Source of the DNA: Thermoplasmata archaeon
GTDB taxonomy: Archaea; Thermoplasmatota; SW-10-69-26; JACQPN01; JAJPHT01
Length of the DNA: 32,606 nt
Direction of reading: 5' to 3'
Assembly: GCA_034667685.1 (NCBI GenBank)
Contig: JAXDQU010000056.1
Span: 1-32,606, forward strand
Positions 9,273 through 32,506 of this stretch are shown piece by piece. The first letter of the stretch is position 1. The number at the start of each line of letters is the position of its first letter. Made by a program: the position numbers and the translations under genes. Below the pieces are notes generated by a model. It saw nothing but the letters and a program-made list of their open reading frames with translations, was not told the origin of the DNA and searched no databases.

Positions 9273-9311
9273 AACATCCTACGGCGGCTGCGCGGGCCGA
9301 AGTCGGCCTAG
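9273..9311 (+). pseudogene. Displaced remnant of an ALDH 3' end ([12 protein letters not shown])
   Basis: 8 of 10 residues are identical to the current ALDH C-terminus. Its TAG overlaps the convergent copA TAG in the CTAG at 9308-9311. Confidence 0.55.
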
Positions 9312-11401: not shown

Positions 11402-11477
11402 GCGCCGGGGATGGCGCGCCGCGCTGAATGGCCTTCCCCTTGCCAAACGTTAAGCTGGAAGCGGGCGAAGGGCGCGC

Positions 11478-16600: not shown

Positions 16601-18742
16601 CAGGACGCTGTCGCAGCTGTTGCTGATGTGGGAGTGCGAGACCGAGTTCGGGTCGATCTTCACGTCGACGTTCTCGGTGACGTGGCCGGTGTTGGTGATC
16701 CACGTGCGCACCAGCAGGCCGTCGAGGCCGTTGAGGGAGTACGTCGTCTGGGCGTCGCAGTTCGCGCTGGGCGCGCTGGGGCTGCCGCCCGGAAGGGTGG
16801 GCAGCTGGGAGCCGCCGCCGGGCGCGGGCGAGGTCGCGGGCACCGCGCACGGGTCCACGAGCGCGGTGACGGGCACGCCGTTGACGGTGTCGAGGAGGTC
16901 GACGCGGTAGGCCGCGACCGTGTTGAGGTGCAGGCGCGTGACGCGGTCGAAGGCGTTGCCCGTCGCGTCGGTGTTGGTGACGTTGAGGTCGAGGTCGAGC
17001 TGCGTCGTCTGGCTCTGGTCGGGGCCGTGGACGCGCATGACGACGGTCGCGAGGCCGCCGGCGGGCACGTTGGCGAGGACGAGGTGGCGCAGGACCTGCG
17101 TGCCGGAGACGAAGCCGACGTTCCACGCGCCCGTGTTGGCGTTGCCCACGTCGAGCGAGAGGTTGGCCGGCGCGCCGCCGCGGTTCCACGCGTAGACCGG
17201 GACGTCGGTGTCGACGCCGGGGTCGACGCTCCTGTCGTGGGGCGCGAGGATGGCGACCTCGTGGCCCGCGGGCGGGTTGATCGACGCGACGAGGGTGAGC
17301 GGGTCGGAGACGACGTGCGAGTCGTTGACGCTCGTGGCGCGCACGAGGAACGTGCCCGAGCCGGCCGCGGCGAAGGGCGCGGCGATGGTCACGGTGAAGA
17401 CCTTCGACTCCAGGGGCGCCATCGAGACGGTGTCGCCCACGAGGTCGGGGCCGCCCAGCGTGGGCGCCCAGCCCGTCTGGGGCGAGCCGGGCACGGGGAC
17501 GAAGACCGTCGAGATGCGGAACGCCTCGGGCGCGCCGCCGGTGTTGTTCGCGGTGAGCACGAAGGTCGTGGCGCCGCCGCTCGTGACGGCGTGCGAGGCG
17601 CTCTCGAAGATCGGCGGGACCGTGGTGGAGTCGGCGAGGACGCCGAGCCGCACGCCGTGCGCGTTGATGGCGAAGTCGAACTGGTTGCCGTGGGAGAGCG
17701 TGTCCTGGCTCCAGTAGCGGAAGCTCGTCTCCAGGCGCAGGGGACCCGCGGTCCAGCCGCGGTAGTCGAGCGAGCCCTCGGGGAAGCCCCACGTCTTGAT
17801 GCCCAGCGACGGGTTGGAGAGCGACGAGGCCTCCACGCCCGTGACGGTGTTGGCCGCGTTGGGGAACGGCATGTAGAGCGAGTCGCCGCGGAAGACGCGG
17901 AACGTCGGGGGCGCCGAGCTGACGTCGGCCTGGCCCCACGCGCTCTGGATCGCGAAGAAGCCCTTCAGCAGCGGCGGCGAGGTGCTGTTGTTGTCGAGGG
18001 GCGCGTAGGTGGTCTGGAGGGTGCCGTTCTGGTCGCCCGTCCAGGTGGCCGCGCGGTACGCGTCGTCCGACTCGATGACCATGCTCGACTGCGTGTCGTC
18101 GACCGTCCAGGTGGGCGAGAGGGGCGAGGCGCCGCCGAGGTTGGGCAGCGACGAGGGGAGCTCGGTGATCTCGACGCTGACGGTGTCGCCCGCGTGGAAC
18201 CACGCGACGCCGGTGCCGTCGGCGAGCTTGAGCGTGAAGTCGAGCGCGTTCGCGGTGGTCGTGCCGCCGGCGACCTCGCCCGGGTCGAACATGTCGATCG
18301 AGCCCGCGCGCAGGTGCGCCGCGAAGCTCTGGCTGCTGGAGAAGCTGCCCGCGAGGTGGAGCTTGACGGCCTTGCTGGTGTTGAAGTCGCGCACGAGCGC
18401 GGAGCCCGCGCTGAACGTGGCGCTGGTGGCGACCGAGCCGCCCGCGGGCGCCGAGGTGCCGCTGAAGACGCACGCGGGGGCGCGCGGGTCGTCGGTGGCG
18501 GTGACGGGGTGGCCCGTGGGGTCGAGCTGGCCCGCGGTGCAGTCGGGCGTGTTGCGGGAGCCCTGCTGCGTGGCGAAGTGGAGCCAGACGGTCCGCTCGA
18601 AGCCGGGAATCGGCTGCCACGCGACGGGCGTGCCGCCCGGGATCGTGGGGACGTTGTCCGCAAGCGCGGGGCTCACCGCGAGGAGCGCGGGGACGATCAT
18701 GATGGCGGCGATCGCCACGGTGGCGAGGGTCTTCGCGGACAT
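13691..18742 (-). CDS. Giant membrane-anchored surface glycoprotein (about 1680 aa) with tandem Ig-like COG1470/NEW3-type domains and Asp-rich Ca-binding-like loops
   Basis: GGAGTGA SD then MSAKTLATVAIAAIMIVPALLAVSPALA signal peptide. Repeated V-x-N-x-G-N domain signatures. Loops DVEGDG, DVNNDGTPD and DTNADQSPD. C-terminal TM followed by RVRGRKK. Confidence 0.85.
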   Translation of the reverse strand: MSAKTLATVAIAAIMIVPALLAVSPALADNVPTIPGGTPVAWQPIPGFERTVWLHFATQQGSRNTPDCTAGQLDPTGHPVTATDDPRAPACVFSGTSAPAGGSVATSATFSAGSALVRDFNTSKAVKLHLAGSFSSSQSFAAHLRAGSIDMFDPGEVAGGTTTANALDFTLKLADGTGVAWFHAGDTVSVEITELPSSLPNLGGASPLSPTWTVDDTQSSMVIESDDAYRAATWTGDQNGTLQTTYAPLDNNSTSPPLLKGFFAIQSAWGQADVSSAPPTFRVFRGDSLYMPFPNAANTVTGVEASSLSNPSLGIKTWGFPEGSLDYRGWTAGPLRLETSFRYWSQDTLSHGNQFDFAINAHGVRLGVLADSTTVPPIFESASHAVTSGGATTFVLTANNTGGAPEAFRISTVFVPVPGSPQTGWAPTLGGPDLVGDTVSMAPLESKVFTVTIAAPFAAAGSGTFLVRATSVNDSHVVSDPLTLVASINPPAGHEVAILAPHDRSVDPGVDTDVPVYAWNRGGAPANLSLDVGNANTGAWNVGFVSGTQVLRHLVLANVPAGGLATVVMRVHGPDQSQTTQLDLDLNVTNTDATGNAFDRVTRLHLNTVAAYRVDLLDTVNGVPVTALVDPCAVPATSPAPGGGSQLPTLPGGSPSAPSANCDAQTTYSLNGLDGLLVRTWITNTGHVTENVDVKIDPNSVSHSHISNSCDSVLGGDYKPNTASFGLVTRSPTGALTQFTGQLQNVRPGDSYELYVFVAVDRTSFPCVDGSGHDFLRFNVVATGASGALAQSQAVLHADSSETLGNTAATEGTGAIAANGVILSAVSRNYTNSENNGIAKLDLSQAQQPVITKAATVGQNTTFFVRLTNGADFGTYNDSNGRLVPAWANLTIVNPRAADGWNVSVRAVNGLADAFNPGTANYTLSNDDTSTQPPPTGQAGTRRLGMEDVELRVDVSPPDGVNHTAIGGDSDQVTLFAEMGNSHTQISLISIIGNKAVVNLHGDARALAHPVDGGATAIYLYNNGSAPTTVTLSATMDPASTPNADAWSVQPATQVFDLAAFKNRTSAISIVPPQGASGGRLHVVATYVQVAPSTMATTTLDVPVDVVPSGSLSLAAPVLSTTTGPGQPAQFTLNIQNKGNGPVNYRLRASEIPNWTAILSPPQGTIAAQTTISVPFTLLAPLDAINNSTYQSIVTVEDRDAFEDFSAVPLSVSILGGSPVPSLYVPVVQKTVDRSAQQSFEVQVRNLGNAAGTLPVTVATPEAGWSAFLSQGGQAITSVSLGPNELRTVNVTVVAPLVVPENKVVSFTVTASTQDQTQQSRAILRALIHDYGVAATLPVATQDLTPGLAQDFVLHVTNTGNDNDTLNLSAILPPADFLGWAPLAISPDHVFLNPGQSMDVHATIIPPTSPLPSPRAYGFTFYVGTVGGTAVNVTKNATLAATANVLDYRALDVEGDGQQELAVDANKNKADGYESFKEISGEGGQCVVVSNSRLNGLAKFFLDCPIDGKSLDGIADVWFDPDQLYAFKIDAKQDVADVNNDGTPDYFLDTDRDTHVDMAFDTVTERYWTATEIHALGGDAVQYVVDTNADQSPDYYADPTNHVATKTLALPDHPGLVGLDTKNAGKADKYYDPATKTVTAASVSNLKDFASTNWYFLLGFLALVVIVAVLIVVRVRGRKKDEP

Positions 18743-18762
18743 GGTTTCACTCCGGGGGAAAG

Positions 18763-21219
18763 TCAAGGGGACCGCCTCCGCCGCGCGAGGGCGAGGACGA
18801 GGATGAGGGCGAGGGAAAGGGGGACCTGGGGTCCGGGCACGCCGTGCGCGGGCGTGCTGGGCGTGGGCGTGGGCGGCGCGACCGCCTGCGCGAAGAGCGT
18901 GATGTTGTCCTCCGCGACCGTCTCGTTGGGCGCCTCGGGCACGGTGCGCGCGCGCAGCAGGATCGCCGCGTGGTCGGCGGGCGTGACGCCGCCGGGCGCG
19001 CGGACGGTGACCTGGAGCGTGCGGCTCTGGCCGGGCTCAAGGCGGAACGCGTCGTGGAGGAAGTCCACGGCCCACACGAAGCCGTTGGTGGCGGTCTGGT
19101 CGGCCAGGACGAGGTAGGGGCGCGAGATGGACCCGTTGTTGGTGATGGTCACGTTGAACACTGCCGCCTGCGACGGTGCGACGTATTTGACGGAACCGGC
19201 AGCCGTCACGTGGACGCCCAGGTGCGGATTGACGCGGAAGTGCAGGACGACGGTGTCGCTGACGTTGGGCCCCTCCAGGTTGAACGTCACCGTGTCGGAG
19301 GTGCCGTTCGGCGTGCTCGGCGGAGGCGTCACGACGACGCGGATGGGCGTGATGGAGCCCTGCGGCAGGCGGAAGCTCGTCTGGTCGACCGAGAGCCCCC
19401 ACCCCGCGCTGCCGCTGACGGTCTGCGTGTAGCGCAGGCCGACCGCCGCGTCCGAGGTGCCGTTGTTGACGACGGTGATGACCGCGTCGGTGGGCTGGCC
19501 GGGCGTGACCAGGTACTCGGTCTGGTTGACCGCGAACGTGACGTTGGCCACGCCCTCGAAGGAGACGGAGAGCGTCGCGGCGTCCGAGCCCGAGAGGCCG
19601 GTCGCCACGAGGCTCACGCCGTGCGTGCCGGTGAACTGGGGCGTGGAGGAGAGCGTGACGTTGACGTGCCGCGGCGTCCCGGGCGAGACGGTGACCACGG
19701 GCGCGTCGATCGACGCGGTGAGGAACGGATCGGGCGAGACCGAGAGCGAGACGGTCTCCGGCGCCGAGCCGTTGGCCTCCACGACCATGTCGAAGACTGT
19801 GCTGGCGCCGGCGCGCAGCGGGCGCACGGGGCCGGTCTTGCCGCCCGTGGGGTGGTGGAGCAGGAAGCCGCGCGCGAGCGTCGTCGACCAGACGGTGTGC
19901 CCCTCGCGGTAGGCCATCCGGGTGCCCGCGTCGTTGAGGCGCGCGTCCTCGATCGGCCCCGTGAACGAGCTGGCGGGCAGGACCCAGATGGGGCCCGCCG
20001 CGTCGGGACCGTAGGCGTACGCGCCGTCCGCGCTGGAGTTGGTGACGCTGGCGACGAGGATGGCGCCCGTGCCGTTGTAGCTGAGCGACTGGACGCGGCC
20101 CGGCGCGCTGGCGGACCACGCGGGGGCGGGCGCGCCCGTGGCGCCCAGCGCGAAGGTGTCGAGCTTGCCGCCCGCGACGAGCGCGAGACGCGAGCCGTCG
20201 GTGGAGATCGCGAGCTGCGAGACGTTGTCGCTCCCCGCGCCGGCCTGGTAGGCGCCCTGGTACGTGGCGGTGGCGCCGTCGAGGACGACGAGGCGGCCGG
20301 TGGTGGTCCCGAGCGCGACGAGGCGGCCGTCGGGCGTCGCGGCCATCGTGGCCAGGCGCGTGCCGTTGGCGGGCTCGACGTACCGCGCGCCGAAGGGCTG
20401 GCCGTCGCGGTACGAGACGAGCGCGAGGCCGGCGCTGGTGCGGTTGCCCGGCAGCGCGAAGTCGCCGCCCACGAGGAGCCGGCTCATCGCGCCATCGGCC
20501 GCGAGCGCGCCGGGCGCTCCCGCGAACGTGGTGGAGAAGACGTGCGTGGCCGTGCCGGCCGCGTAGCCGTACGCCTCCAGGGTGAAGTTGCCGTTGCCCG
20601 CGTCGACGAGCACCGCGACGCGCGAGCCGTCGTCCGAGATGGCGAGGCCCGTGGCGGCGACGCCGGGGATCTCCAGCGCGGCGCTCTGGATCGGGCCGGC
20701 GGAGAAGTTGCCGCCCAGGGGCGCCTCGTCCACGTAGAGCTTCAGCGTGCGCGGCTCCTGCGGGTTCGGCGTGGGCGGCTGCGGGTTCATCGGATCGGGC
20801 GTGGAGGGCGCGCTCGTCTGCGTCGTGCGGTCGAGGCCCACGCTCGCGACGGAGTGCCCGTCGGGCGTGACCGCGACGAGCGTGCGGCCCAGGGGCTGCG
20901 TGTTGCCCTGCACGGCGAGGTTGCCCGTGCCGTTGTGGACCCAGCCCACGTCGCTCTGCAGGATCGAGAGGTCGGGGACCGTCGTGGGCGGCTGCGTCGG
21001 GTTCGTCGGCGGACAGACCAGCGTGCAGCCGGTGGAGACGAACGAGTAGGCGTCGAGCGCGACCGCGATCGTCGTGCCCTGGCGCGCGAAGGCGAGCGCG
21101 TGCGTCTGCGCGAGCGCGTTGTATGGGGTCCACGGCTCCGCCTGCGGCGCGTCGGCGCGCGCGAGCGGCGCGAAGGGCAGCAGCAGGAGCAGCGCGAGCG
21201 CGAGCGGCGCGACCTTCAT
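18763..21219 (-). CDS. Surface glycoprotein: beta-propeller plus Ig-like repeats, PGF-CTERM-like tail
   Basis: ATG at 21219 overlaps the upstream TGA (ATGA). Signal MKVAPLALALLLLLPFAPLARA. Blade motifs such as LAISDDGSRVAV, ATPDGRLVAL and LAISTDGSRLAL. Ends VPGP-hydrophobic-RRRR. Confidence 0.85.
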   Translation of the reverse strand: MKVAPLALALLLLLPFAPLARADAPQAEPWTPYNALAQTHALAFARQGTTIAVALDAYSFVSTGCTLVCPPTNPTQPPTTVPDLSILQSDVGWVHNGTGNLAVQGNTQPLGRTLVAVTPDGHSVASVGLDRTTQTSAPSTPDPMNPQPPTPNPQEPRTLKLYVDEAPLGGNFSAGPIQSAALEIPGVAATGLAISDDGSRVAVLVDAGNGNFTLEAYGYAAGTATHVFSTTFAGAPGALAADGAMSRLLVGGDFALPGNRTSAGLALVSYRDGQPFGARYVEPANGTRLATMAATPDGRLVALGTTTGRLVVLDGATATYQGAYQAGAGSDNVSQLAISTDGSRLALVAGGKLDTFALGATGAPAPAWSASAPGRVQSLSYNGTGAILVASVTNSSADGAYAYGPDAAGPIWVLPASSFTGPIEDARLNDAGTRMAYREGHTVWSTTLARGFLLHHPTGGKTGPVRPLRAGASTVFDMVVEANGSAPETVSLSVSPDPFLTASIDAPVVTVSPGTPRHVNVTLSSTPQFTGTHGVSLVATGLSGSDAATLSVSFEGVANVTFAVNQTEYLVTPGQPTDAVITVVNNGTSDAAVGLRYTQTVSGSAGWGLSVDQTSFRLPQGSITPIRVVVTPPPSTPNGTSDTVTFNLEGPNVSDTVVLHFRVNPHLGVHVTAAGSVKYVAPSQAAVFNVTITNNGSISRPYLVLADQTATNGFVWAVDFLHDAFRLEPGQSRTLQVTVRAPGGVTPADHAAILLRARTVPEAPNETVAEDNITLFAQAVAPPTPTPSTPAHGVPGPQVPLSLALILVLALARRRRSP

Positions 21220-23699
21220 CCGCGGCGACCTCCGAGGCGGCGCGCCACCGCGGCGAGCGCCACCATCCCCACGACCAGGAGCGGCGAGGGGCCGGGCAGG
21301 AAGTTGCCCTTGGCGCTGGGCGTCGTGACCGCGGGCTTCGCCGAGAGCGCGATGACGAAGCTCGACTGCGCCCCGGCTGGATCGCCCGTCGAGGTGGCGG
21401 TGAGCGTGATCGTCGCGTCGCGCGACTGCGTGGCGAGGTTCTTCACCGTGAACGCCACGGGCCGGATCTGGCCGATGGGAACGCTGACCTGCTGCACCGA
21501 GAGCACGACGCGCCAGTCGGTGTTGTTGGCGACGCTGGGCGCGATGCTGTAGCTGAGGTTGTAGACGTCCTCGGTGTTGCCCGTGTTGTGGACGTTGAGC
21601 ACCAGCGCGCGCTCCTCGCCCGGATAGAGCTGGAGGCTGCTGTTGGTCGCGTTGAGCTCGGAGCCGAAGAGCGCATCGACGTACGCGGTGAAGCTCTTCG
21701 ACGCGACCGCCGACTCGCCCTCCTTCGCGTAGACGGTGAGGACGTTCCGGTCGCCGCTCACGGCGTCCTTGGGCGCCGTCACGACGAGGTCGACGTTGAC
21801 CGTGGCGCCCGCCGGGACGTGGATCTGGTTGCCCGGACGGAACGACTGGGGCCAGCTCGACCCGCGCGTGAGCGTCTGCGTCACGCTGAGGTTCACGATG
21901 CCCTCCGCGTTGCCGTTGTTGGTGATCGCCAGCGGGATGTCGTCCTCCGCGCCCTGCTTGAGAAGACGCTTCTCGTCGGGACCGCCCACCGAGAGCGCGA
22001 TCGTCCGCGCCAGCGTGAGGTTGATCGACGGGCACGCCACCGTGTCCGAGGACACGCCGCCGCACGAGACGGGCTTCACGTTCGCGTTCGCGTTGGCCGC
22101 GTGCACCTCGATGACGATCGGGTACGCGCCAGGCGCCTGGCCCAGGGGCGCGGTCACCGTCAGGTTCGCCACGCCCGTCTGGTCCGGATCGAGCCGCATC
22201 GGCGGCACGCTGTTGACCGTCCAGGGCGAGGTCGTGCTGGAGAGCGGCTGCTGCACGACGAAGCTGAAGTTGTCCGTCAGGCTGCCCGCATTGCGCACCG
22301 TGAGCTGGAGCGACAAGGGCGCGCCCGGCACGATCGCGCTCCCCGCGGGCGCCAGCAACGTCGCCGCCGCCGACTCGCCCACGTCGAACGCCGCGACGTT
22401 GGTCCGGCCCGCCACCACGACGCGCGTCGCGTCCTGCGTGGGGTGATAGACGCCATCGTACCAGGCGTCCGCCACGCGCACGCTGTGCACCGGAACGCCC
22501 AGGCCCGTCGCCACCGCGTCGATCGTCCAGACCGGATCCAGCCGCCCCGGCGAGAAGCCGAGCACGCTGTTCCCCGCCGCCGCCACGAGCAGACGGCCCG
22601 AGCCGTCATACGAGAGATCCGTGACCGGCGCGCCGGCGTCATAGTCGCCATCGAACTGCGCGATCAGGCTGTTGTGAAGCGCATGGAAGAAGCTGACGCG
22701 CGTCCCGCTCGCCGAAGCGAAGCGCTCGCCATCCTGCGAAAGCGCCACCGCCACCACCGCCGCCTGCCCCGGCGTCTGGCGGCTGAACACCGGCCGCACG
22801 ATGTCGTGCGAGACCGGATCCACGCGCATGTAGTAGGTGTAACCGTTGGTCGCCGCCGCCACCACGTCGCCCGCCGCGCTGAGCGCGACCTCGTTCACCG
22901 GCGACGTGTTGTACGGATGCAGATCATCGCTCGTGGCGGGCGCATCGTCCGAAGGCACCAGCACGTCCACGCCACCGGGCGTCCCGATCGCCACCAGGCC
23001 GCCATCGCGCGCCCACGCCAACGACGTCGCGTACGTCGCGCTCTGCGCCGAGTTGACCAGCGCGTAGTTCCACTTCAGATCGCCCGCGCCGCTGTACATC
23101 GTCAACATGCCCGTGCTCGTCCCCGAGCGCGACGCGAAGAGCGCATGCTGCCCATTGGGCGCGATGCTGGCATTGAGCGCCGTCACCTGGCTCGTCACCG
23201 AGCCCAGGTTGTGCTCCCAGTGCGCCGCCGACTCCGTCGAGACCCAATACGAGACCAGATCGCCCGGACCCGCCACCGCAAAGGCCGACTGCAAGCCACC
23301 CGCCGTCGTGTACGCCGTCCCGCTCACCGACTGCGTCATCGACGTCGACCCGGACGAAGGGCTGAACTGATGGCTCGCCGTCCGACACCCCTGGTTCGAC
23401 TGCCCAAAGTCGCACACGTACACGCTGGGCTGGCTCGAAAGCTGCCCCGGCGTGCTCTGGCACGTCACGCCCGGAATGCAAGTCCCCGAAGGAATCCCCG
23501 AGCCGCTCGCCGCCGGCACGCTCTCCACCGCCAACGCCACCTGGCCCGCCGGATCAAGCGCCAAATCCGAAACCTCCAACGACCCCGTCGCCTGGACCGA
23601 ATCATGGAGCGGAGGCGCAGCACCCTCCGCCCACGGAACCAGAGGCGCGGCAAGAAGAGCCGCCAAAAGCGTGACCAAGATCGCGCGGCCGTGGGGCAT
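21216..23699 (-). CDS. Surface glycoprotein paralogue: beta-propeller plus Ig-like repeats, PGF-CTERM-like tail
   Basis: Signal MPHGRAILVTLLAALLAAPLVPWAEG. Blades LAWARDGGLVA, VALSQDGERFA and LSYDGSGRLLV. Ends LPGP-hydrophobic-RRLGGRRG. Confidence 0.85.
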   Translation of the reverse strand: MPHGRAILVTLLAALLAAPLVPWAEGAAPPLHDSVQATGSLEVSDLALDPAGQVALAVESVPAASGSGIPSGTCIPGVTCQSTPGQLSSQPSVYVCDFGQSNQGCRTASHQFSPSSGSTSMTQSVSGTAYTTAGGLQSAFAVAGPGDLVSYWVSTESAAHWEHNLGSVTSQVTALNASIAPNGQHALFASRSGTSTGMLTMYSGAGDLKWNYALVNSAQSATYATSLAWARDGGLVAIGTPGGVDVLVPSDDAPATSDDLHPYNTSPVNEVALSAAGDVVAAATNGYTYYMRVDPVSHDIVRPVFSRQTPGQAAVVAVALSQDGERFASASGTRVSFFHALHNSLIAQFDGDYDAGAPVTDLSYDGSGRLLVAAAGNSVLGFSPGRLDPVWTIDAVATGLGVPVHSVRVADAWYDGVYHPTQDATRVVVAGRTNVAAFDVGESAAATLLAPAGSAIVPGAPLSLQLTVRNAGSLTDNFSFVVQQPLSSTTSPWTVNSVPPMRLDPDQTGVANLTVTAPLGQAPGAYPIVIEVHAANANANVKPVSCGGVSSDTVACPSINLTLARTIALSVGGPDEKRLLKQGAEDDIPLAITNNGNAEGIVNLSVTQTLTRGSSWPQSFRPGNQIHVPAGATVNVDLVVTAPKDAVSGDRNVLTVYAKEGESAVASKSFTAYVDALFGSELNATNSSLQLYPGEERALVLNVHNTGNTEDVYNLSYSIAPSVANNTDWRVVLSVQQVSVPIGQIRPVAFTVKNLATQSRDATITLTATSTGDPAGAQSSFVIALSAKPAVTTPSAKGNFLPGPSPLLVVGMVALAAVARRLGGRRG

Positions 23700-23760
23700 G
23701 TGGAGGCACTCTCCCGGCGGCAACGGCCGGCGGAATCCGACGCCGCGGATTCGAGTGGCC

Positions 23761-23769
23761 CTATAAAAG
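23761..23769 (-). promoter_or_regulatory. TATA box of the surface-protein operon
   Basis: The minus strand reads cttttatag about 65 nt upstream of the ATG at 23699. This is the clearest TATA in the window. Confidence 0.65.
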
Positions 23770-23806
23770 GCCTCGGAATCGCGCGCCACGCGCACGACCA
23801 CACCCA

Positions 23807-23828
23807 TTTTCCAGGGGAAAACGCGGGG
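23807..23828. promoter_or_regulatory. Palindromic operator or ORB-like motif
   Basis: ttttcc-agg-ggaaaa palindrome at 23807-23821 followed by cgcgggg. Confidence 0.4.
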
Positions 23829-23913
23829 CAACGCCCCCCTCTCCAAACCCTCCGCGAAAGCCCTTCCGGTGACGCGCTGAAAAGACGATGCCCGCTACGT
23901 CGATCCGCGAAAG

Positions 23914-25853: not shown

Positions 25854-26990
25854 TTACGGCGCCCCCGGCACCGGCGCGGGGTACGGGATCAGCTGTCCGT
25901 TGGCCATCGTCGCGGTCACGAGCGTCGCGCGCGTGCTGGCGAGGTAGCCGATGCCCGTGTTCAGGCTGGCGTCCACGAAGATGTGGGTGTTGATGCCGGC
26001 GGCCTCGCGCTCGGCGCCCACGGCGTCGCCGGTGAGCGTGTTGGAGGCGGAGCCGCTGTCGCCGGGCGTGATGGCGCCTTCCCAGATCATCGTGCTGCTC
26101 GTCCAGTAGAACGCGGTGCCGGCGCGGGGCGTGCCGTCGGTGCCGATGCCGGCGCCGTGGCCGTAGTGGACGATGCCCTGCACGAGGAAGGGGTCGGTGT
26201 TCAGGGTCGGTCCGCTGATGAGGTTGCGGCCCAGCAGGCTCGCGGCGAGGGTGGCGCCGGTGTCCTTGTACTGGCCGATGGGGCCGCCCCAGAAGCACAT
26301 GGTGGGCGAGACGAGGCCCTGGTTGGCGGTGTTGATGCCGATGAGGGCCCAGTCCTTGCCGATGCCGGCGTCGCCGGTGCTCTTGACGAACTTGCCGAAG
26401 TCCAGGAGGATCGGCACGGAGACGGCGGGCAGGCCGAAGAAGGGGCGGTCGAAGTTGCCCACGGCGGCGATGACCGTCGCGGTGTCCCCGACGTTGCCGC
26501 AGTGGCCGGCGGTGCTGATCTGATAGCTTCCGGGCGTGCCGTAGACGTGGGCCATGCTGCACAGCGAGATCGCGTCGGGAGAGAGAAGCAGGAGCCACGC
26601 GCCGGGGCGGATGCCCAGGCAGCCCGTGCCCGCGTAGGAGGCAAGGGCTGACGCGCTGACGCCCTGCGTGGTGCCGTCAGGGAAGACGGCGGTGGGCGTG
26701 TCGTAGCGCTGCGCGAGCAGGACGTCGCGCGGGGGCAGGCCCATGAGCGCGAGGTCGTCGTCGCTGAGCGTCATCTTCATCGGCGCCCAGGTGCCGGCGG
26801 GGTAGGTCGCGAGCAGGTGGTCGACGAAGTGCTGGCGAAGCTGGCACATCGCGGTGGGGTCCACGGTGAACTCGCCGACGCTGGTCAGCGTGGGGGCTTG
26901 CGTCGCGGCGAGCGAGGTCGTCGCGACGAGGGGCAGGCTCAGCGCCGCGAGCACGAGCAGCACGGCGAGGTTTCGGGTCTTGGTCTCCAA
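25854..26990 (-). CDS. Secreted chymotrypsin-like (S1) serine protease with N-terminal pro-region
   Basis: TTG start after GGAGG. Signal peptide ...LAVLLVLAALSLPLVATTSLA. Catalytic triad motifs TAGHC, KDWALI and GDSGS. Confidence 0.85.
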   Translation of the reverse strand: METKTRNLAVLLVLAALSLPLVATTSLAATQAPTLTSVGEFTVDPTAMCQLRQHFVDHLLATYPAGTWAPMKMTLSDDDLALMGLPPRDVLLAQRYDTPTAVFPDGTTQGVSASALASYAGTGCLGIRPGAWLLLLSPDAISLCSMAHVYGTPGSYQISTAGHCGNVGDTATVIAAVGNFDRPFFGLPAVSVPILLDFGKFVKSTGDAGIGKDWALIGINTANQGLVSPTMCFWGGPIGQYKDTGATLAASLLGRNLISGPTLNTDPFLVQGIVHYGHGAGIGTDGTPRAGTAFYWTSSTMIWEGAITPGDSGSASNTLTGDAVGAEREAAGINTHIFVDASLNTGIGYLASTRATLVTATMANGQLIPYPAPVPGAP

Positions 26991-27000
26991 TCCAATCACA

Positions 27001-27020
27001 GCCTCCGGTTTCCCGGAGGC
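27001..27020 (-). promoter_or_regulatory. GAAA-tetraloop hairpin covering the protease SD
   Basis: mRNA sense gccuccgg-GAAA-ccggaggc. The GGAGG lies in the 3' arm. Confidence 0.5.
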
Positions 27021-27059
27021 CGGAAAAATCGGCGTGCGGAGTTTCAAGTCATCGCCAGC

Positions 27060-27092
27060 GCTCGTGGAGATTCACAGCGAATCTCCACGAGC
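27060..27092. repeat. 14-bp perfect hairpin downstream of rrp42 (possible terminator or processing signal)
   Basis: gctcgtggagattc-acagc-gaatctccacgagc. Confidence 0.7.
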
Positions 27093-27108
27093 ACGGGCGA
27101 GGGTCGGG

Positions 27109-27909
27109 TTAGCCGACCTGCTTGAGGAGCTGCTCGCGCAGCATGCCCGCGAGCTCGCCGCCGCGGCGGACGATGTGGCGGACCTCGTCCTTGGTGAACG
27201 AGCCGCCCAGGCCCTTCTGCATGGCGCGGATGTTGCCGGCGCGGTCGAACGAGACCGAGAGGCGCGGCCCGCCGACCTTCTCCTCGAGCGAGGTGGGGTC
27301 GAAGAGGATCTGGCCGCCCAGCTTGATCGCCGTGACCATGACTGGGATCTCCTTGACCGGCATGGGCGCGTCGGCCATCGCGGGGATCCCGTCGATGTGC
27401 ACCTTGCCGTTGGGGACGGTGGCGCTCATGAGCGCGGCGATGCAGCCCAGGCTGCACGCGTCGAACATGTTGCCGTCGTAGTCGATGGCGTGCATGTCGA
27501 GGTAGCTCATCCAGATCTTCTCGCCCGGCTTGATGCAGAGCTTGCCGAAGTCGATGCACTTGCTCTCGCGGATCCCGCGGTCGACGACGCGCGCCAGCTC
27601 GATGCTGGTCTGCGAGGGCGGGCCGACCTCGAAGTCGGCGCTCGCCAGCGGGACCAGCTCGGCGCTCGTGGTCATGGTGCCGTCGTTGGGCGCGTCCGGG
27701 TAGGGCGTGCCCACGGACATCTTGATGCCCACGATGACCTGCGTGTCGCCCAGGTGGACGCGGGCGCTGCCCTCGGCCTGCTGGATGTAGCGCGTCGTGA
27801 TCTTCACGGGGCGGTACTCGTCGAAGGCGCGCCCGTCGTGGCGCTTGCCTTCCTTGGCGAGCTGGACGAGGTAGTCCTTCTTGATGTCGGCGACGACGTC
27901 GTCGGACAT
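27109..27909 (-). CDS. rrp42: Exosome core subunit Rrp42
   Basis: RHDGRAFDEYR, AEGSARVHLGDT, FEVGPP, IELARVVDRGIRES and DPTSLEE. Confidence 0.96.
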   Translation of the reverse strand: MSDDVVADIKKDYLVQLAKEGKRHDGRAFDEYRPVKITTRYIQQAEGSARVHLGDTQVIVGIKMSVGTPYPDAPNDGTMTTSAELVPLASADFEVGPPSQTSIELARVVDRGIRESKCIDFGKLCIKPGEKIWMSYLDMHAIDYDGNMFDACSLGCIAALMSATVPNGKVHIDGIPAMADAPMPVKEIPVMVTAIKLGGQILFDPTSLEEKVGGPRLSVSFDRAGNIRAMQKGLGGSFTKDEVRHIVRRGGELAGMLREQLLKQVG

Positions 27910-28704
27910 TCAGGCTCCCTCCTCGATGGGCGCGGGCGCGGCGGCCTCGGGCTCCTTCTCCTCGTCGTCGCCCTGCGCGGCGGATTGATAGCGGCGCAGG
28001 AGCGCGGCCTTCTGGAGCTCGTAGACCTCCATCGCGGCGTTCGTCGCCAGCTCGAGGGCCTGGTCGAGCTCGTCGGGCGAGAAGTGGCCGTCCTGCTGGA
28101 GCAGGACGATCTCGCCGGTCTTGGGCACGATGGCGATGGGGAAGTCCGTCTCGCCGTAGTTGTCCTCCTCGCGCGAGAGGTCGAGGCAGACCTTGCCGTC
28201 GACCTTGCCGGCGGCCACCGCAGCCACCATGCCGCGCATGGGGATGCCAGCGTCGGCGCACGCGACGGCGGCCGCGGTCAGGCCCGCGCAGCGCGTGCCG
28301 GCCTCGGCCTCGATGATCTCGATGAAGATATCAATGGCGTTCTTCGGGTAGAGCGAGGTCAGGACGACGTGGTCGAGCGCCTCGGAGCTGATCTTCGAGA
28401 TCTCCTGGCTGCGGCGGTCGGGGCCGGGGCGCTTGCGGTCGGAGACGGAGAACGCGGCCATGTTGTAGCGCACGCGGACGCGCGCCTTGGTCGGGTCCTG
28501 GTCGTGGCGCGGGTGGCACTCGCGCGGCCCGTAGACCGCGGCCATGACCTTGTTGCCGCCCCACTCGAGATAGCACGAGCCGTCGGCCTGCTTGAGCACG
28601 CCCGCCTCGATCTTGATGTTCCTGAGCTGGTCAGGGCGACGTCCGTCCATGCGGAGGCCCTGTTCGTTGATGAGAACCATTCCTTCGGGTTTCTTTCCAC
28701 CCAT
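27910..28704 (-). CDS. rrp41: Exosome catalytic subunit Rrp41
   Basis: RMDGRRPDQLR, ADGSCY, VYGPRE, RYNMAAFS, GTRCA and EDNYGETD. ATG at 28704 follows GGAGTGA. Confidence 0.96.
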   Translation of the reverse strand: MGGKKPEGMVLINEQGLRMDGRRPDQLRNIKIEAGVLKQADGSCYLEWGGNKVMAAVYGPRECHPRHDQDPTKARVRVRYNMAAFSVSDRKRPGPDRRSQEISKISSEALDHVVLTSLYPKNAIDIFIEIIEAEAGTRCAGLTAAAVACADAGIPMRGMVAAVAAGKVDGKVCLDLSREEDNYGETDFPIAIVPKTGEIVLLQQDGHFSPDELDQALELATNAAMEVYELQKAALLRRYQSAAQGDDEEKEPEAAAPAPIEEGA

Positions 28705-28709
28705 GACAA

Positions 28710-30536
28710 TCACTCCTGTCCTCGGCCGCCGTTGCCGCGGCCGCGTCCGCCACGCCGTCCGCGCCCGCCGCGGCGGCGATCGCCGCCACCGTCCGAGTCG
28801 CGGCGCGCGGGGCGCTCGTCTTCCTCGTCCTCGTCGCTGGCCGCGAATCGTCGCGGCGAAGACGAACCCGAAGGCTCGTCGGAAGCCGCGAATCGTCGCG
28901 GCGGAGGCGAGCCCGCAGGCTCGTCCGTGAAACGGCGGGGCGCGGGCTTGCGAGGAGCATCCGTCTCCTCGTCGTCATCGAAGCGGGAGGGGCGGCGCGC
29001 GGCGGGGCGCGGCGCCTCGTCCTCCTCGTCGAAGCGTGAGATGCGGGGCGGGGCGCGGCGGGGCGCCTCCCCCTCGTCGGCCGCGAAGCGTCGCGGCGGG
29101 GGCGAGCCCGCGGCCTCGTCCGAGAAGCGGGGGCGCGGCGGCGCGCGCTCCTCGCGGCGCGGAGGGCGGTCGCCGCGCTCTTCCTCGAAGCGGCGCGGGC
29201 GCTCCTCGCGGCCGCGGGGCTCCTCGAACCGCCGCGGAGGACGCTCGCTGCGCTCCTCCTCAAAGCGGCGAGGCGGCGCGCGCTCCTCGCGGCGCGCCCG
29301 GCTGAACGGCTCGGCCTCGCCTTCGCCCCGGCTGCGGGGCTCCTCGAAGCGGCGCGCGGGGCGCTCCTCCTCGAAGCGGCGGGGCGGGGCGCCCCGGCCG
29401 AACGATTCGGCCTCGCCCTCGGCGGAGCGCCGACGGGGCTCCTCGCGGCGCGGCTCGTCGCGGCGGGCGGCGCGCTCCTCGTGGCCGTGGTGGCGCTCGC
29501 CGGCGCGGCGCTCGGAGTGGTGGCGCTCGTGGCGCACCTCCCCGCGGGGCCCGCGGCGCTCCTCCAGGTCCGCGTCGGCGGTGTCGTCCTCGGCGGCGCG
29601 CTGGTAACGGTGCTTCTCGGCCTCGCTGCGGCCGGCGCGGGGGCGCTCCTCGCGCGTCTCGCGGCGCGGCGGGCCCCGGCCGAACGATTCGGCCTCGCCC
29701 TCGGCGGAACGCCTGCGGGGCTCGGCGCGCGCGGGGGCTTCCTCCTCCTCGGCGAGGCGGCTGGGACGCTCGCGGCGTTCCGGACGCTCGCGGCGCTCGC
29801 GCGTGATCTCGCGGTCCTCCTCGGCTTCGGCCTCGACCTCGCTGGACTGCTTGTGGGTGCGCTGCGCGCTGGGGCGCTTCTCCTCGAGCCAGGCCTTCAT
29901 GCGGTCCGTGAGCCCGGTCGTGTGCGCCTCGGCCTCGATCTTCTGGAGGCCCTCGAGCGCGAGCTTGACGTCGTCGGCCTCGCCGTCGAGCCAGATCTTG
30001 CCGTTCTGCCCAACGAAGATGCGCACGTTGGTGGCGTCCTTCAGCATGGTGATCATGCTGCCCTGGCGCCCGACGATGCGCGGGACCTTGGTGGGCGCGA
30101 CCTCGAAGATGAGGCCGCCGGTGAGCTTGCGGCACTGGCGGTCCTTCATCGAGACCTGCGCCTTCTTCATCTCGTCCACGTGGACGATCTTGAGAAGGAC
30201 GGTGTCGCCCACGGCGAGGTACTTCGACGTCTCGCCGAACTCGACGCGCCAGGGCACGTCGTTGACGTGCATGCCGACGTCGTTGGCGGCGCCGATGTTG
30301 ATGTACCAGTTGGAGGGGCCGGTCTCGGCCACGGTGCCGATGACCATGTCGCCGCGGAAGGGCTCGTAGCGGCCCGAGAGGCCGATGACGTTCACGCGGT
30401 CGCCACGGACCGCCTTGACGCCCAGCCGGAGGGCGTAGATGTCGCGGCCCTCCACGTAGGTGTTCTGGCCCGGCTGCATCTCTCCGGTGCTTCCGAGGCG
30501 CTCGCCCGGGACCACGACTTGGCGCGTATCGCTCAT
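28710..30536 (-). CDS. rrp4: Exosome RNA-binding cap subunit Rrp4 with a C-terminal low-complexity extension of about 390 aa
   Basis: Residues 1-221 carry the Rrp4 N-domain, S1 and KH features (VVPGERL, YEPFRGDMVIG, KVPRIVGRQGSMI, VGQNGKIW, EAHTTGLTDR). They are followed in frame by an R/E/P-rich tail ending in RGG repeats. Confidence 0.93.
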   Translation of the reverse strand: MSDTRQVVVPGERLGSTGEMQPGQNTYVEGRDIYALRLGVKAVRGDRVNVIGLSGRYEPFRGDMVIGTVAETGPSNWYINIGAANDVGMHVNDVPWRVEFGETSKYLAVGDTVLLKIVHVDEMKKAQVSMKDRQCRKLTGGLIFEVAPTKVPRIVGRQGSMITMLKDATNVRIFVGQNGKIWLDGEADDVKLALEGLQKIEAEAHTTGLTDRMKAWLEEKRPSAQRTHKQSSEVEAEAEEDREITRERRERPERRERPSRLAEEEEAPARAEPRRRSAEGEAESFGRGPPRRETREERPRAGRSEAEKHRYQRAAEDDTADADLEERRGPRGEVRHERHHSERRAGERHHGHEERAARRDEPRREEPRRRSAEGEAESFGRGAPPRRFEEERPARRFEEPRSRGEGEAEPFSRARREERAPPRRFEEERSERPPRRFEEPRGREERPRRFEEERGDRPPRREERAPPRPRFSDEAAGSPPPRRFAADEGEAPRRAPPRISRFDEEDEAPRPAARRPSRFDDDEETDAPRKPAPRRFTDEPAGSPPPRRFAASDEPSGSSSPRRFAASDEDEEDERPARRDSDGGGDRRRGGRGRRGGRGRGNGGRGQE

Positions 30537-30554
30537 GATATCACATCTGGAATG

Positions 30555-31277
30555 TCAGGGGTTGTTGGTGGATTTCAGGATGCGCGTCTCCACGTCGCCG
30601 TGGGTGCGCTTGTTGAGCTCGTTGAAGAACTCGGTCTGCATGCCGCCCGGGATCTCGATGACGGCGATGAACGAGCCGTCGCTCTGCCAGGCCTGCTGCT
30701 TCAGCTCGCCCCATCCATGGAGGGCGCTGGTCGCCTTGCCCGCGTGCTCGGGCGGGAACTTCACCGCGATCTGGATCGTCTCGATGCGGATCGGGATGAG
30801 GGGCCGGATGGCCTTCAGCACGTCCTGCACCTGCGCGTCGACGCTCTTGAACGGGTCGAGGTGGATGCGCGCCTCGTCCATCGCGGTCTCGATGCGCTGC
30901 GGCGGGTGCGGCGCCTTCGTCTGCGGGTTGATCGCATTGCGCGCGATGTGCGCGATGATGAGGCGCTTCTTGCGCTCGACCATGCGGCGGCGCTGGTCCG
31001 TCGTGAGCTGCAGGTCGCCCTTGAGGAGGATCTGCTTGACGGCCATGGGCACGTCGGTCGTGCCGAAGATCTGCATCAGCTCGTCGTCCGCGGCGCGGGC
31101 GCCGTCGCGGGCCGGGCCCACGAAGACGCCTTCGACCGCGAGCAGCTCGTCGAGGTCGAGCTTGACGTTGCCCTTCTCCTCGCGGAAGTGGAGCGGGATC
31201 TCGGGATCGACGAGGATCTCCAGATGGAGCCCGCCCTTCTCCAGGCGGGCCACGACGGCCTCGTCGAGCGTGACCAT
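30555..31277 (-). CDS. sdo1: Ribosome maturation factor SBDS/Sdo1
   Basis: VVARLEKGGLHLEILVDP, FGTTD, GDLQLTTDQRR and INPQTKAPHPPQRIE. Confidence 0.95.
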   Translation of the reverse strand: MVTLDEAVVARLEKGGLHLEILVDPEIPLHFREEKGNVKLDLDELLAVEGVFVGPARDGARAADDELMQIFGTTDVPMAVKQILLKGDLQLTTDQRRRMVERKKRLIIAHIARNAINPQTKAPHPPQRIETAMDEARIHLDPFKSVDAQVQDVLKAIRPLIPIRIETIQIAVKFPPEHAGKATSALHGWGELKQQAWQSDGSFIAVIEIPGGMQTEFFNELNKRTHGDVETRILKSTNNP

Positions 31278-31289
31278 GCGCGTCGCTCC

Positions 31290-32009
31290 TCAGCTCGGGG
31301 GCGCCGCGCGGTCCGCGTAGGCCTTGATCTCGGCCCCGTCGAGCTTGCGGAAGGCGGCGTCCTTCGTCACGACGCCGATCTCCAGCGCGGCCGCGTTGAG
31401 CTTGCCCTCGGTGGCGCGGTAGAGCGCCTTCAGGCCCAGCGCGATCGCGTCGTCCTTGGTGACGCCCTCGCGGTACTCGTTCTCGAAGATCTCCATGACC
31501 TGGCTGCGGCCCGCGCCGATGGCGGTGGCCTTGTAGGACATGAGGGCGCCCGAGGGGTCCGTCTCGTAGAGGTGCACGCCGCCGGCGTCCTTGCCCGCGA
31601 TGAGCAGCGCCGTCCCGAAGGGGCGAACGCCGCCGTACTGCGTGTAGGTCTGCTTGAAGTCGCAGATCTTCTTGACGAGCGTCTCGACCTCGATGTTCTC
31701 GTCGTAGGTGACGCGGTTCATCTGCGCGTCGGTGCGCGCGCGGTCGACGAGCACACGCGCGTCGGCCACGAGGCCCGAGGTGGCGACGCCGAGGTGGTCG
31801 TCGACCTTGAAGATCTTCTCGATCGAGTTGGGCTCGATGAGCTGGCTGGTGATGCGCTTGTCCACGATCAGCACGACGCCGTCGTGGAACTTCAGGCCGA
31901 CCGTGGTCGTGCCGCGCTTGACGGCCTCGCGGGCATACTCCACCTGGAAAAGGCGGCCATCCGGCGAGAACACGGTGATCGCGCGGTCATACATCTGCGC
32001 TGGTTGCAA
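31290..32009 (-). CDS. psmA: 20S proteasome alpha subunit
   Basis: [28 protein letters not shown] and ETDPSG. TTG start after GGAGG. Confidence 0.97.
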
Positions 32010-32179
32010 GGGGCTCGGTTCCTCCTACGTCCACGTCAGGCTCAGGGAAAGGGAAACCAGGCGTCTGCGGGCGCGGAATGCGCAGCCCCGATCGGTGCGG
32101 GGGGCGCCAACGCGCGGCGGAAAAGGCTCCTTTTCCGGGTCCTTCTGTCGCGGCGCCATCCTGCGCACCATACTTGAAC

Positions 32180-32506
32180 CTATCTTCCTTCTGCGGCGCG
32201 CGGTCGCGGCGAAGGCTTGCTCGCCGGGCTCTCCGCCGGCAGGCTCCGCGCCGCTGCCCGGATGGTTCCCGAGGTCACGAGGCTCACGAGGTGGACATCG
32301 CGCCCTGATAGCGCGGCCGTCCCATTGAGGACTCGAACCAGCGCGTCCAGGTCACGGTGCGTGGTGCGCGCGATGCCGTGCGTGCCGTCGAAGCGCGTCA
32401 GCCGCGCGCCGGGAGGCAACGCGGCGGCGAGCGCGGCGCGCGTCGTCGCGGGGCTCGCCCGGAACGCCACGTAGCGCGTGCGCCCGACCTTCGCCTTCAC
32501 CGTCAC
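32180..32506 (-). CDS. rnp2: RNase P protein Pop5/Rpp14
   Basis: RYVAF...GIAR...TSGTIRAA. Canonical position upstream of psmA. Confidence 0.75.
   Translation of the reverse strand: MTVKAKVGRTRYVAFRASPATTRAALAAALPPGARLTRFDGTHGIARTTHRDLDALVRVLNGTAALSGRDVHLVSLVTSGTIRAAARSLPAESPASKPSPRPRAAEGR

Follow-up and report, generated by a model that had tools for sequence, protein, structure and literature searches.

An Arg-rich disordered tail on the archaeal exosome subunit Rrp4, a candidate RNA-capture arm in a soil lineage of Thermoplasmatota

In a Thermoplasmata archaeon from soil (genome G000, GCA_034667685.1), the exosome subunit Rrp4 continues past its folded core for 383 residues as a near-neutral polyampholyte predicted to be disordered, which we read, with confidence evenly balanced, as a multivalent RNA-capture arm carried by a genuine Rrp4. 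The gene lies on contig JAXDQU010000056.1, whose positions 1-32,606 were analysed and are called here the window, in an operon with the following elements, from head to end:

31290..32009 (-): proteasome alpha subunit gene (psmA), operon head, without a tail
30555..31277 (-): SBDS gene, upstream in the operon, without a tail
28710..30536 (-): Rrp4 coding sequence, 608 aa plus stop (ORF listing, translation, Pfam)
29862..30536 (-): Rrp4 core, residues 1-225, with N-terminal domain, S1 and KH (Pfam; pLDDT mostly 70-95; 46-94% identity to relatives)
28713..29861 (-): predicted disordered C-terminal tail of Rrp4, residues 226-608, 383 aa (pLDDT, composition, charge)
28702..28716 (-): coupling junction rrp4/rrp41, made of GGAG, the Rrp4 stop TGA, 5 nt and the rrp41 ATG
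27910..28704 (-): rrp41 (RNase PH), ending in an acidic tail of 25 aa
27109..27909 (-): rrp42 (RNase PH), without a tail

The core shows the domain order of archaeal Rrp4, with ECR1_N at residues 7-41 (E 1.6e-9), RRP4_S1/S1 at 56-131 and KH_6/KH_1 at 141-197, and the gene sits where an exosome operon places it, with rrp41 and rrp42 (RNase_PH and RNase_PH_C domains) directly downstream and SBDS and psmA upstream. The initial annotation had set the end of the core near residue 221 in a frame that stays open to 608 aa, which agrees with the Pfam core and with an AlphaFold2 model folded confidently to about residue 222. It had also placed the rrp4 stop inside the Shine-Dalgarno sequence of rrp41, coupling the tail tightly to the operon. 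In this regard, the TGA (28712-28710) abuts GGAG (28716-28713), with 5 nt left to the rrp41 ATG (28704-28702), and a GTG overlaps the stop codon as well. This junction, which is conserved and also found in tail-less relatives of the class, supports translational coupling to rrp41.

An open frame alone is weak evidence in this region, since the opposite strand of the same DNA also carries long meaningless ORFs, of 917 and 898 aa. These ORFs, the break of Logan unitigs within the tail repeats and the absence of one base at 29284 in one low-depth contig of the independent soil sample X2 are what speaks for an artefact, whether through faulty assembly, through an overlooked stop or frameshift, or through a spacer that codes for nothing and is merely left open in GC-rich DNA. 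Such an origin is largely refuted and we attach next to no probability to it. Comparison with DNA of another sample revealed that contigs of X2 are identical to G000 over 28630-29275, 29325-29761 and 29898-30600, and hence over most of the tail, some parts of the region being without listed cover in X2 and X3; the strain variant X3 shows substitutions and one 3-nt omission relative to G000. Moreover, the frame of the tail has the highest GC3 among the frames (0.89) and is open to the conserved stop/start junction in all five genomes of the genus, and the terminal RG box is conserved. The tail is thus real, and its frame is the coding one: basic-aromatic-acidic triplets number 9 against 3.3 expected (2 of 1000 shuffles reach 9), and the top-scoring tandem repeats have periods of 45, 27, 18 and 21 nt, all multiples of three. 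The RNA library X7 yielded short contigs only, mostly from relatives and with DNA carry-over possible, and they do not count as a sign of expression.

The composition of the tail is dominated by R (25.6%) and E (19.8%), followed by P (11.7%), A (11.0%), G (8.4%) and F (3.9%), with a charged-residue fraction of 0.52 and hydrophobics (ILVMWYC) at 1.8%. Its 101 basic and 99 acidic residues leave a net charge of +2, unlike classical polycationic RNA-binding tails, an observation that counts against the RNA-capture arm. The blocks of Arg and of Glu/Asp that the initial annotation saw alternating along the tail did not withstand analysis: the charges are instead finely mixed, alternating at a scale of 2-4 residues (kappa 0.193), with a longest positive run of 3 and a longest negative run of 7, and the net charge per 20-aa window stays mostly within +/-4 except at the C-terminal end. 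The SCD of the tail is less negative than that of most shuffles. The prediction of disorder that had been called for gave a clear outcome, with pLDDT <50 at residues 226-302 and 327-605 in the AlphaFold2 model, that is, across nearly the whole tail, which is accordingly predicted to be intrinsically disordered. Its elements, from the core to the C-terminus, are:

29670..29708 (-): acidic-Phe-Gly motif SAEGEAESFGRG, copy 1, with copy 2 at 29388-29426 and a variant at 29295-29327
29562..29627 (-): sole predicted helix of the tail (AlphaFold2, model residues 304-325, pLDDT about 60)
29475..29531 (-): residues 336-354, a stretch rich in His and Arg
28830..29384 (-): residues 385-569, holding the array of 12 Arg-Phe-acidic motifs; tandem repeats with periods of 45 and 27 nt, in frame
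28815..28838 (-): residues 567-574, an acidic patch shortly ahead of the RG box
28719..28778 (-): terminal RG/RGG box, residues 587-606, then Q-E to the protein end

The 12 RF-then-acidic motifs, located at residues 387-564, reproduce exactly the count and the list first reported (RRFEE five times, PRFSDE, RRFAADE, SRFDEE, SRFDDD, RRFTDE and RRFAASDE twice). They belong to a series of 15 Phe between residues 379 and 564 that includes the non-RF Phe379 and Phe411, spaced by 9-21 residues and each followed by 2-4 acidic residues, so that the evenly spaced aromatics with Arg partners and the low hydrophobicity typical of sticker-and-spacer sequences are all present. An RGG/RG box is defined by at least two RGG or at least three RG set 0-4 residues apart; the terminal box that had been claimed for the tail, just before the final Q-E, contains two RGG separated by 3 residues and four more RG, and 23 of the 30 C-terminal residues of Rrp4 are R or G, a value reached in 0 of 2000 shuffles. 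The helical island is conserved in the closest species (G000/G003 alignment), and an HHS-x-RRA motif related to the His/Arg-rich stretch occurs in two other species of the genus.

The acidic residues behind each Phe and the acidic patch directly preceding the RG box also allow a mainly regulatory tail to be envisaged, in which acidic-aromatic motifs would mimic nucleic acid, fold onto S1/KH or onto the tail's own RG box, and gate the access of RNA. Precedents for such mimicry and gating are the acidic tips of Hfq and SSB in bacteria, the S1 domain is an OB fold, and the Rrp41 proteins of the genus bear acidic C-terminal tails of 25-31 aa too. Nevertheless, acidic Rrp41 tails are also found where the Rrp4 tail is absent (e.g. 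L015) and the full-length AlphaFold2 model shows no confident docking of the tail on the core, its pLDDT remaining below 50, which is weak evidence; we consider this possibility quite unlikely.

Recurrence of the tail in related genomes, which the initial annotation had put forward as a check, was observed throughout the genus: five of five genomes have Rrp4 tails that close with an RG box and measure 383, 314, 265, 415 and 243 aa beyond the aligned core; the genomes compared here being kin, neither this count nor the following ones represent independent events. RG-rich Rrp4 tails occur in 10 of the 15 genomes of the order. Three others of the order (G011, G013 and G014) have tails of just 16-32 aa, and the tail is therefore dispensable in them. 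In the sister family f6 (60-66% GC) the tails measure 0-4 aa in all five matched genomes, and among the 19 more distantly related members of the phylum that were examined, no Rrp4 had an RG box at its C-terminus. Conserved as a feature, the tail is fast-evolving as a sequence, with dN/dS of 0.34-0.87 versus 0.20-0.37 in the core (six pairs) and, within the genus, identity at 48-70% of aligned tail positions amid many indels. Both this fast evolution and the dispensability of the tail in those three genomes count against the RNA-capture arm. Conservation is 90% or higher at R595, G599 and G601 across 18 long Rrp4 proteins, and the Arg-Phe-acidic context is enriched relative to shuffles in all 10 genus-like tails. 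The repeat types vary by lineage (RRFEE, GGFRGERER, REGGFERRE), and in one relative the tail is rich in Lys and Ala instead, a sign of selection for basic character in its own right.

These data bear on the idea that the tail is mostly neutral low-complexity DNA, arisen by slippage of GC-rich repeats between KH and the conserved stop junction and tolerated since it is disordered, function residing only in an ancestral short RG box. In favour of such a process are the spread of tail lengths in a single genus (243-415 aa), the evident tandem repeats with their lineage-specific types, a dN/dS of up to 0.87 and a tail GC of 0.75-0.83, above both the flanks (0.65-0.70) and the genome (0.71). It hardly accounts, however, for Phe, whose codons are AT-rich, retaining the same Arg/acidic surroundings in every genus-like tail, nor for the lack of expansion of the operon neighbours (psmA, SBDS and rrp42 have no tails in the same operons) or the existence of tail-less relatives at 60-70% GC, such as family f6 and G035. 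Moreover, long R/E stretches are limited to exosome subunits, and the two family members without an RG tail on Rrp4 carry one on Csl4 or Rrp41, as described below. Neutral expansion seems to us improbable, and the view of the tail as a by-product of high GC was rejected on account of the same tail-less relatives and neighbour genes.

The Arg-rich regions are restricted to exosome subunits, among which their position changes. In G007, the Rrp4 tail is acidic and 45 aa long and an RG tail of 113 aa is borne by Csl4, the only one of 10 Csl4 proteins examined to do so, and in G008, with an acidic Rrp4 tail of 55 aa, Rrp41 bears an acidic-plus-RG tail of 126 aa. Both genomes belong to different genera of the same family, and the placement of the RG tail on a different subunit in sister genera suggests that it is the whole complex that needs the tail. 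DnaG, another exosome subunit, has an Arg/Glu-rich linker of 138-234 aa in all nine measurable genomes of families f1 and f3, which together with the Csl4 and Rrp41 tails makes a role at the level of the exosome more likely. Within G000, seven RRF-acidic motifs fall in Rrp4, and no other frame among 21,841 has more than one. Windows rich in R/E were detected in 532 frames, which almost without exception are non-coding frames within GC-rich genes, and the five that pass the GC3 filter include Rrp4, DnaG and a third that is a second DnaG fragment; long Arg/Glu polyampholyte stretches are found in this genome only in Rrp4 and DnaG. When the tail DNA was compared by blastn with the whole genome, the best non-self match was the DnaG linker (70-78% over ~100 nt), which we read as common composition rather than gene conversion. 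Compensation for an absent Csl4 or DnaG was discarded, as both are present in G000, Csl4 being missed by a search with PF10447 (EXOSC1) and found via ECR1_N. Contig C16 encodes a 214-aa protein with an RG tail that gave no usable match in a protein database search.

A second reading, which takes up the degradosome scaffold or RNA-decay condensate of the initial annotation, is compatible with RNA capture and plausible, though we would not expect it to prevail: the tails and the DnaG linker would be to this archaeon what the RNase E scaffold is to bacteria, recruiting partner enzymes, driving RNA-dependent condensates that concentrate RNA decay, or both. The valency would be high, with three tails per cap, each having 12 evenly spaced motifs (9-21 residues) and an RG box; DnaG would add a second disordered region, such regions being confined in G000 to exosome subunits; a motif similar to the acidic-Phe-Gly one of the Rrp4 tail occurs once in the G000 DnaG linker; and the conserved helical island could serve as a partner site. 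In bacteria, RNA-decay condensates built on disordered RNase E regions offer a precedent (10.1101/690628, PMC12510024). Against this reading, long charge blocks are absent, as the kappa of 0.19 and the SCD indicate. In theory, well-mixed polyampholytes self-associate only weakly. A search with the tail only by phmmer against 1.84 billion representative proteins returned no matches at E <= 0.001 and hence no common module detectable by sequence, a null that says nothing on novelty because composition-bias correction probably drops even true relatives.

Turning back to the RNA-capture arm, there would be up to three tails per exosome, whose RG boxes and Arg/Phe motifs would make weak contacts with RNA that depend little on its sequence, while the interspersed acidic residues would keep the tail expanded and soluble and its binding reversible. 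In this manner, RNA would become locally more concentrated at the S1/KH entrance and avidity there would increase. The tail belongs to a group of Arg-rich disordered exosome regions particular to this lineage, which comprises the RG tail of Rrp4, Csl4 or Rrp41 and the DnaG linker. Binding to RNA, the gain in avidity and any assembly of higher order are what we infer from these features.

A broader and rather speculative proposal is that Arg-rich disordered regions are a constant feature of the exosome in this soil order of Thermoplasmatota, as an RG tail on Rrp4, Csl4 or Rrp41 and as the DnaG linker, and that together they would act as the scaffold of an RNA-decay condensate or degradosome. 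Such an assembly would parallel the RNase E bodies of bacteria and would have arisen independently of them, on a machine that degrades RNA phosphorolytically in the 3'-5' direction. We know of no organising scaffold in archaeal RNA decay comparable to bacterial RNase E, and to our knowledge few archaeal biomolecular condensates have been reported. Judged from the sequences, what appears to be new here is the varying placement of the RG tail among Rrp4, Csl4 and Rrp41 and the Arg/Glu-rich linker of DnaG: a conserved and well-understood machine has gained large Arg-rich disordered regions, which in G000 only exosome subunits possess. The organisms are uncultured, yet the hypothesis is directly testable with recombinant proteins, and nature supplies ready controls in the form of tail-less relatives, a Lys/Ala-rich tail, and tails on Csl4 or Rrp41. 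If true, convergent evolution would have equipped the RNA-decay machines of bacteria, archaea and eukaryotes alike with disordered modules for RNA capture or scaffolding.

Compared with known systems, the protein is in its first part a canonical archaeal Rrp4, with the identical N-terminal/S1/KH order, a psmA-SBDS-rrp4-rrp41-rrp42 operon, and Csl4 and DnaG in the genome. The studied proteins of Sulfolobus, Archaeoglobus and Thermoplasma acidophilum end with KH, the three domains being 'a common characteristic' according to PMC11201974, whereas that of G000 has 383 extra disordered residues past KH; a description of such an Rrp4 tail was not found in the literature searched. The initial annotation called the tail RNase E-like, which stands as an analogy only: with the C-terminal scaffold of RNase E it shares being an Arg-rich, disordered and multivalent extension of lineage-variable length on a component of the main RNA-decay machine. 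There is no homology, and instead of an endoribonuclease catalytic domain fused to the disordered region, the sole folded part is the S1/KH Rrp4, which is itself non-catalytic and caps a phosphorolytic 3'-5' exonuclease. The RNase E tail of Caulobacter, underlying its BR-bodies, has long alternating charge blocks, while in G000 the charges are mixed every 2-4 residues, and neither an amphipathic membrane helix nor a partner microdomain was recognised in the tail, the former being argued against by the scarcity of hydrophobics. Closer in composition are the RGG/GAR and Arg/Phe-rich regions of eukaryotic DDX4, LAF-1 and fibrillarin, which likewise combine an RG/RGG box, Arg and spaced aromatics, low hydrophobicity and predicted disorder; the G000 tail differs in its R-F-acidic rather than FG/RG context, its net charge of about zero and its location on a structural subunit of an archaeal exosome. 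Finally, the basic disordered C-terminal 'lasso' of yeast Rrp6 has been reported to bind RNA and to stimulate the nuclear exosome. Although that lasso belongs to a separate catalytic cofactor, is much shorter and lacks both repeat array and RG box, it is likewise a disordered basic region at the cap side of an exosome, with the same proposed role of feeding RNA into the complex.

Within the exosome operon of the window, which keeps the classical order psmA, SBDS, rrp4, rrp41, rrp42 with all the genes on the minus strand (Pfam), rrp4 encodes a protein that showed every feature tested for membership of the Rrp4 family, followed by a long C-terminal extension:

28710-30536, minus strand: rrp4, a single open frame of 608 aa
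residues 7-41: Rrp4 N-terminal domain (Pfam)
residues 56-131: S1 domain (Pfam)
residues 141-197: KH domain (Pfam)
28713-29861, minus strand: the tail, residues 226-608

The tail is made up of 25.6% Arg, 19.8% Glu, 11.7% Pro, 11.0% Ala, 8.4% Gly and 3.9% Phe, with 101 basic and 99 acidic residues. Twelve Arg-Phe-acidic motifs lie between residues 387 and 564, an RG box covers residues 587-606 and Gln-Glu closes the protein, whose stop TGA comes immediately after GGAG, with the ATG of rrp41 5 nt further. Re-reading of the sequence showed that the initial annotation had described the frame, the 12 motifs, the RG box and the stop junction accurately. Disorder of the tail is likewise predicted by an AlphaFold2 model built with an 18-sequence alignment, which was confident for the core and gave pLDDT values below 50 at residues 226-302 and 327-605, with only one helix in the tail (304-325, pLDDT ~60). 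The proposed charge blocks, on the other hand, were not found: the sign of the charge changes every 2-4 residues, runs of one sign reach at most +3 and -7, and kappa is 0.193 versus 0.138 +/- 0.024 in shuffles, for a fraction of charged residues of 0.52 and a net charge per residue of +0.005.

Around the operon, an ORF of 397 aa without Pfam match but with a hydrophobic N-terminus (25854-27047, minus strand) lies directly downstream of rrp42 and probably codes for a surface or secreted protein with no relation to the operon, and a 108-aa ORF, also without Pfam match (32180-32506, minus strand), lies upstream of psmA. Other genes of the window are:

84-1376, minus strand: chromate transporter
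2997-5912, plus strand: Lhr-type large helicase (DEAD, Helicase_C, WH_Lhr and DEAD_assoc domains)
6057-7607, plus strand: aldehyde dehydrogenase
9311-11446, minus strand: heavy-metal P-type ATPase
13694-18766 and 21219-23846, minus strand: two large Ig-like-domain surface proteins

An open frame at 70% GC proves little, since meaningless ORFs of 917 aa (26854-29607, plus strand) and 898 aa (29481-32177, plus strand) run on the other strand of the same region, both with non-coding codon-position GC and typical of the spurious frames of such DNA. Codon-position GC of the tail frame is 0.86/0.65/0.89 and, like that of the flanking genes, peaks at the third position. The top-scoring tandem repeats of the tail recur every 45, 27, 18 or 21 nt, other periods corresponding only to low-scoring short GC microrepeats. 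Contigs from public sequencing runs were aligned to the rrp4 region; three of these runs (X1-X3), labelled as soil metagenomes, hold a large share of the window's words. Contigs of X1, which may be the source run of the sequence, tile the full stretch without difference. Run X2, from a different sample and study, is identical over 28630-29275, 29325-29761 and 29898-30600, with a single depth-2 contig lacking one base at 29284, and X3 is a strain variant that differs only by substitutions and one 3-nt omission. An RNA library (X7) contains an identical piece across the rrp4/rrp41 junction, not taken as proof of transcription, as well as sequences of relatives, one of which differs in length by a net 60 nt while keeping the frame. 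Altogether, the tail is real coding sequence.

Rrp4 was searched in 41 related genomes and matched in 39, and each tail was measured anew from the point where the core alignment stops. The recurrence of long tails, on which the initial annotation had made its proposal depend, was found in all five genomes of the genus, the source genome included (383, 314, 265, 415 and 243 aa), each tail having Arg-Phe (or Thr-Phe)-acidic repeats and ending in an RG box. In the family's other genera the tails are either RG-rich (107 and at least 69 aa) or acidic and without RG box (55 and 45 aa), and in other families of the order they are either RG-rich (105, 126 and 128 aa) or short (32, 17 and 16 aa). The tail measures 0-4 aa in the five matched genomes of the sister family (a sixth gave no match), and an RG-box end was seen in none of 19 more distant members of the phylum, where tails span 0-132 aa. 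High GC as the cause of this pattern was ruled out, because the sister family has 60-66% GC and a further relative (G035) combines 70% GC with a 30-aa tail.

A query with the core against 5.8 billion proteins, which detects only relatives with exact 5-residue words in common, returned 22 Rrp4 proteins with lengths of 334 aa or more, 18 of them from close relatives (core 62-91% identical); the longest, of 640 aa, belongs to the related genome G001. Repeat units vary among the long proteins (RRFEE-, GGFRGERER- and REGGFERRE-type), most of which end in an RG box, and residues R595, G599 and G601 show at least 90% conservation across 18 of them. In one database protein (P0013, core 77% identical) a Lys/Ala-rich, histone-H1-like tail of ~150 aa replaces the Arg/Glu/RG tail. 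The GGAG-TGA-N5-ATG junction also occurs in tail-less relatives of the class, and thus the tail expanded within rrp4 itself, upstream of a coupling signal that stayed fixed and includes the terminal Glu codon.

Six genus pairs gave Nei-Gojobori dN/dS values of 0.34-0.87 for the tail, compared with 0.20-0.37 for the core, and the closest pair gave 0.52 (259 codons) versus 0.20, figures that are rough because the repeats must be aligned. Moreover, the Arg-Phe-acidic context exceeded shuffles in 10/10 genus-like tails (at most 3.4% of shuffles reached the observed count), which matters because Phe needs AT-rich codons and this DNA is very GC-rich.

No extensions were found on psmA, SBDS or rrp42 of the same operons. 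One genome of the family (G008; C125, L045) has a 126-aa Rrp41 tail, acidic and then with a long RG box, where the stop of rrp41 overlaps the rrp42 start and Rrp4 keeps only its 55-aa acidic tail. Another (G007; C86, L053) has a 113-aa RG-rich tail on Csl4 and the 45-aa acidic one on Rrp4, the other nine Csl4 proteins examined, that of the source genome included, being without tail. The RG tail is therefore on Rrp4 in 7/9 genomes of the family, on Csl4 in 1/9 and on Rrp41 in 1/9. Rrp41 of the window itself ends in a 25-aa acidic tail (27910-27987, minus strand), and such tails measure 25-31 aa in the four genus genomes with a complete Rrp41 end; they are only loosely tied to the Rrp4 tail, as some relatives with acidic Rrp41 tails have a tail-less Rrp4.

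DnaG has been described as an archaeal exosome subunit that binds via Csl4 (PMC3672285; PMC4227792). In the source genome (L059/L061, contig C110:19879-21637, the gene running past the contig end) a 218-aa Arg/Glu-rich linker joins its TOPRIM domain to the conserved C-terminal part, with REPREER-type repeats and one copy of an acidic-Phe-Gly motif common to the Rrp4 tail. Linker lengths were compared between families, five loci being left out for contig ends, masked bases or the two parts lying in different ORFs. The linker is Arg/Glu-rich and spans 138-234 aa in all nine measurable genomes of families f1 and f3. It has 92 aa in one genome of f2, 57 aa (Lys/Gln-rich) in one of f4, and 54-95 aa with another composition in the four genomes of the sister family f6 that could be measured.

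Two genomes with a tail-less Rrp4 (G013 and G014) have DnaG linkers of 181 and 234 aa, the longest Arg/Glu/Gly-rich ones outside the genus. Another contig of the source genome (C9:1-640, L060) begins within another DnaG-like C-terminal part, which shares 73% identity with that on C110 and has Arg/Glu repeats of its own; it may stem from a paralogue, from a strain variant or from an assembly that broke in the repeat.

Throughout the source genome (3.48 Mb, 99% complete), Rrp4 has seven copies of the RRF-acidic motif, and no other of the 21,841 frames that reach 80 aa has more than one. Polyampholyte windows (80 aa or longer, basic and acidic residues each making up at least 20% and hydrophobic ones at most 12%) were found in 532 frames, five of which passed a coding filter of GC3 >= 0.86: Rrp4, DnaG, the second DnaG C-terminal part at the beginning of its contig, a Lys/Glu-rich N-terminus and a doubtful frame. 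C-terminal RG boxes in coding-looking proteins were limited to Rrp4, a 214-aa protein and a uS4-like protein. The 214-aa protein (contig C16, L023:2327-2971, plus strand), with an RG-box end of the same kind as that of Rrp4 and no match in Pfam or Atlas, follows an ORF with a diphthamide-synthase domain; the other (C108, L024), which by eye we take to be ribosomal protein uS4, has a Gly/Arg/Pro-rich C-terminal extension.

The disordered regions thus belong to the exosome as a whole, beyond Rrp4 alone, a point that is new here. That they are confined to exosome subunits, and that the tail has moved from one subunit to another, makes a purely neutral expansion unlikely, even if such expansion could account for part of the variation in tail length. 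The most economical reading is that the Rrp4 tail would act as a disordered multivalent RNA-capture arm. RGG boxes of eukaryotes make weak, low-specificity RNA contacts, and the RG box and Arg/Phe motifs may likewise touch RNA weakly and with little sequence preference, the acidic residues, equal in number, would keep the chain expanded and binding reversible, and up to three arms per cap might act together with the DnaG linker. The same facts could describe a condensate or scaffold module, as suggested by the valency, the even spacing of Phe in the tail (9-21 residues apart), the presence of two disordered subunits sharing the acidic-Phe-Gly motif and the one conserved helical island, but the charges are well mixed and there is no known partner. 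Auto-inhibition by acidic-aromatic segments mimicking RNA is possible, although the monomer model docks no tail segment on the core, a weak argument against it. Altogether, the observation of the tail is confirmed and extended, and the interpretation first given to it is partly supported. The finding is relevant to archaeal RNA decay and to research on prokaryotic condensates.

In the available part of a 2024 paper on the structure of Thermoplasma Rrp4, three domains only are described (PMC11201974). A full-text search, with most subscription journals outside its reach, found no literature on Rrp4 tails, disordered archaeal exosome subunits or archaeal exosome condensates. As for the RNase E likeness originally proposed, two defining features of the RNase E scaffold are absent from the Rrp4 tail, and what stands is at most a functional resemblance; the nearest sequence grammar is that of eukaryotic RGG and Arg/aromatic disordered regions.
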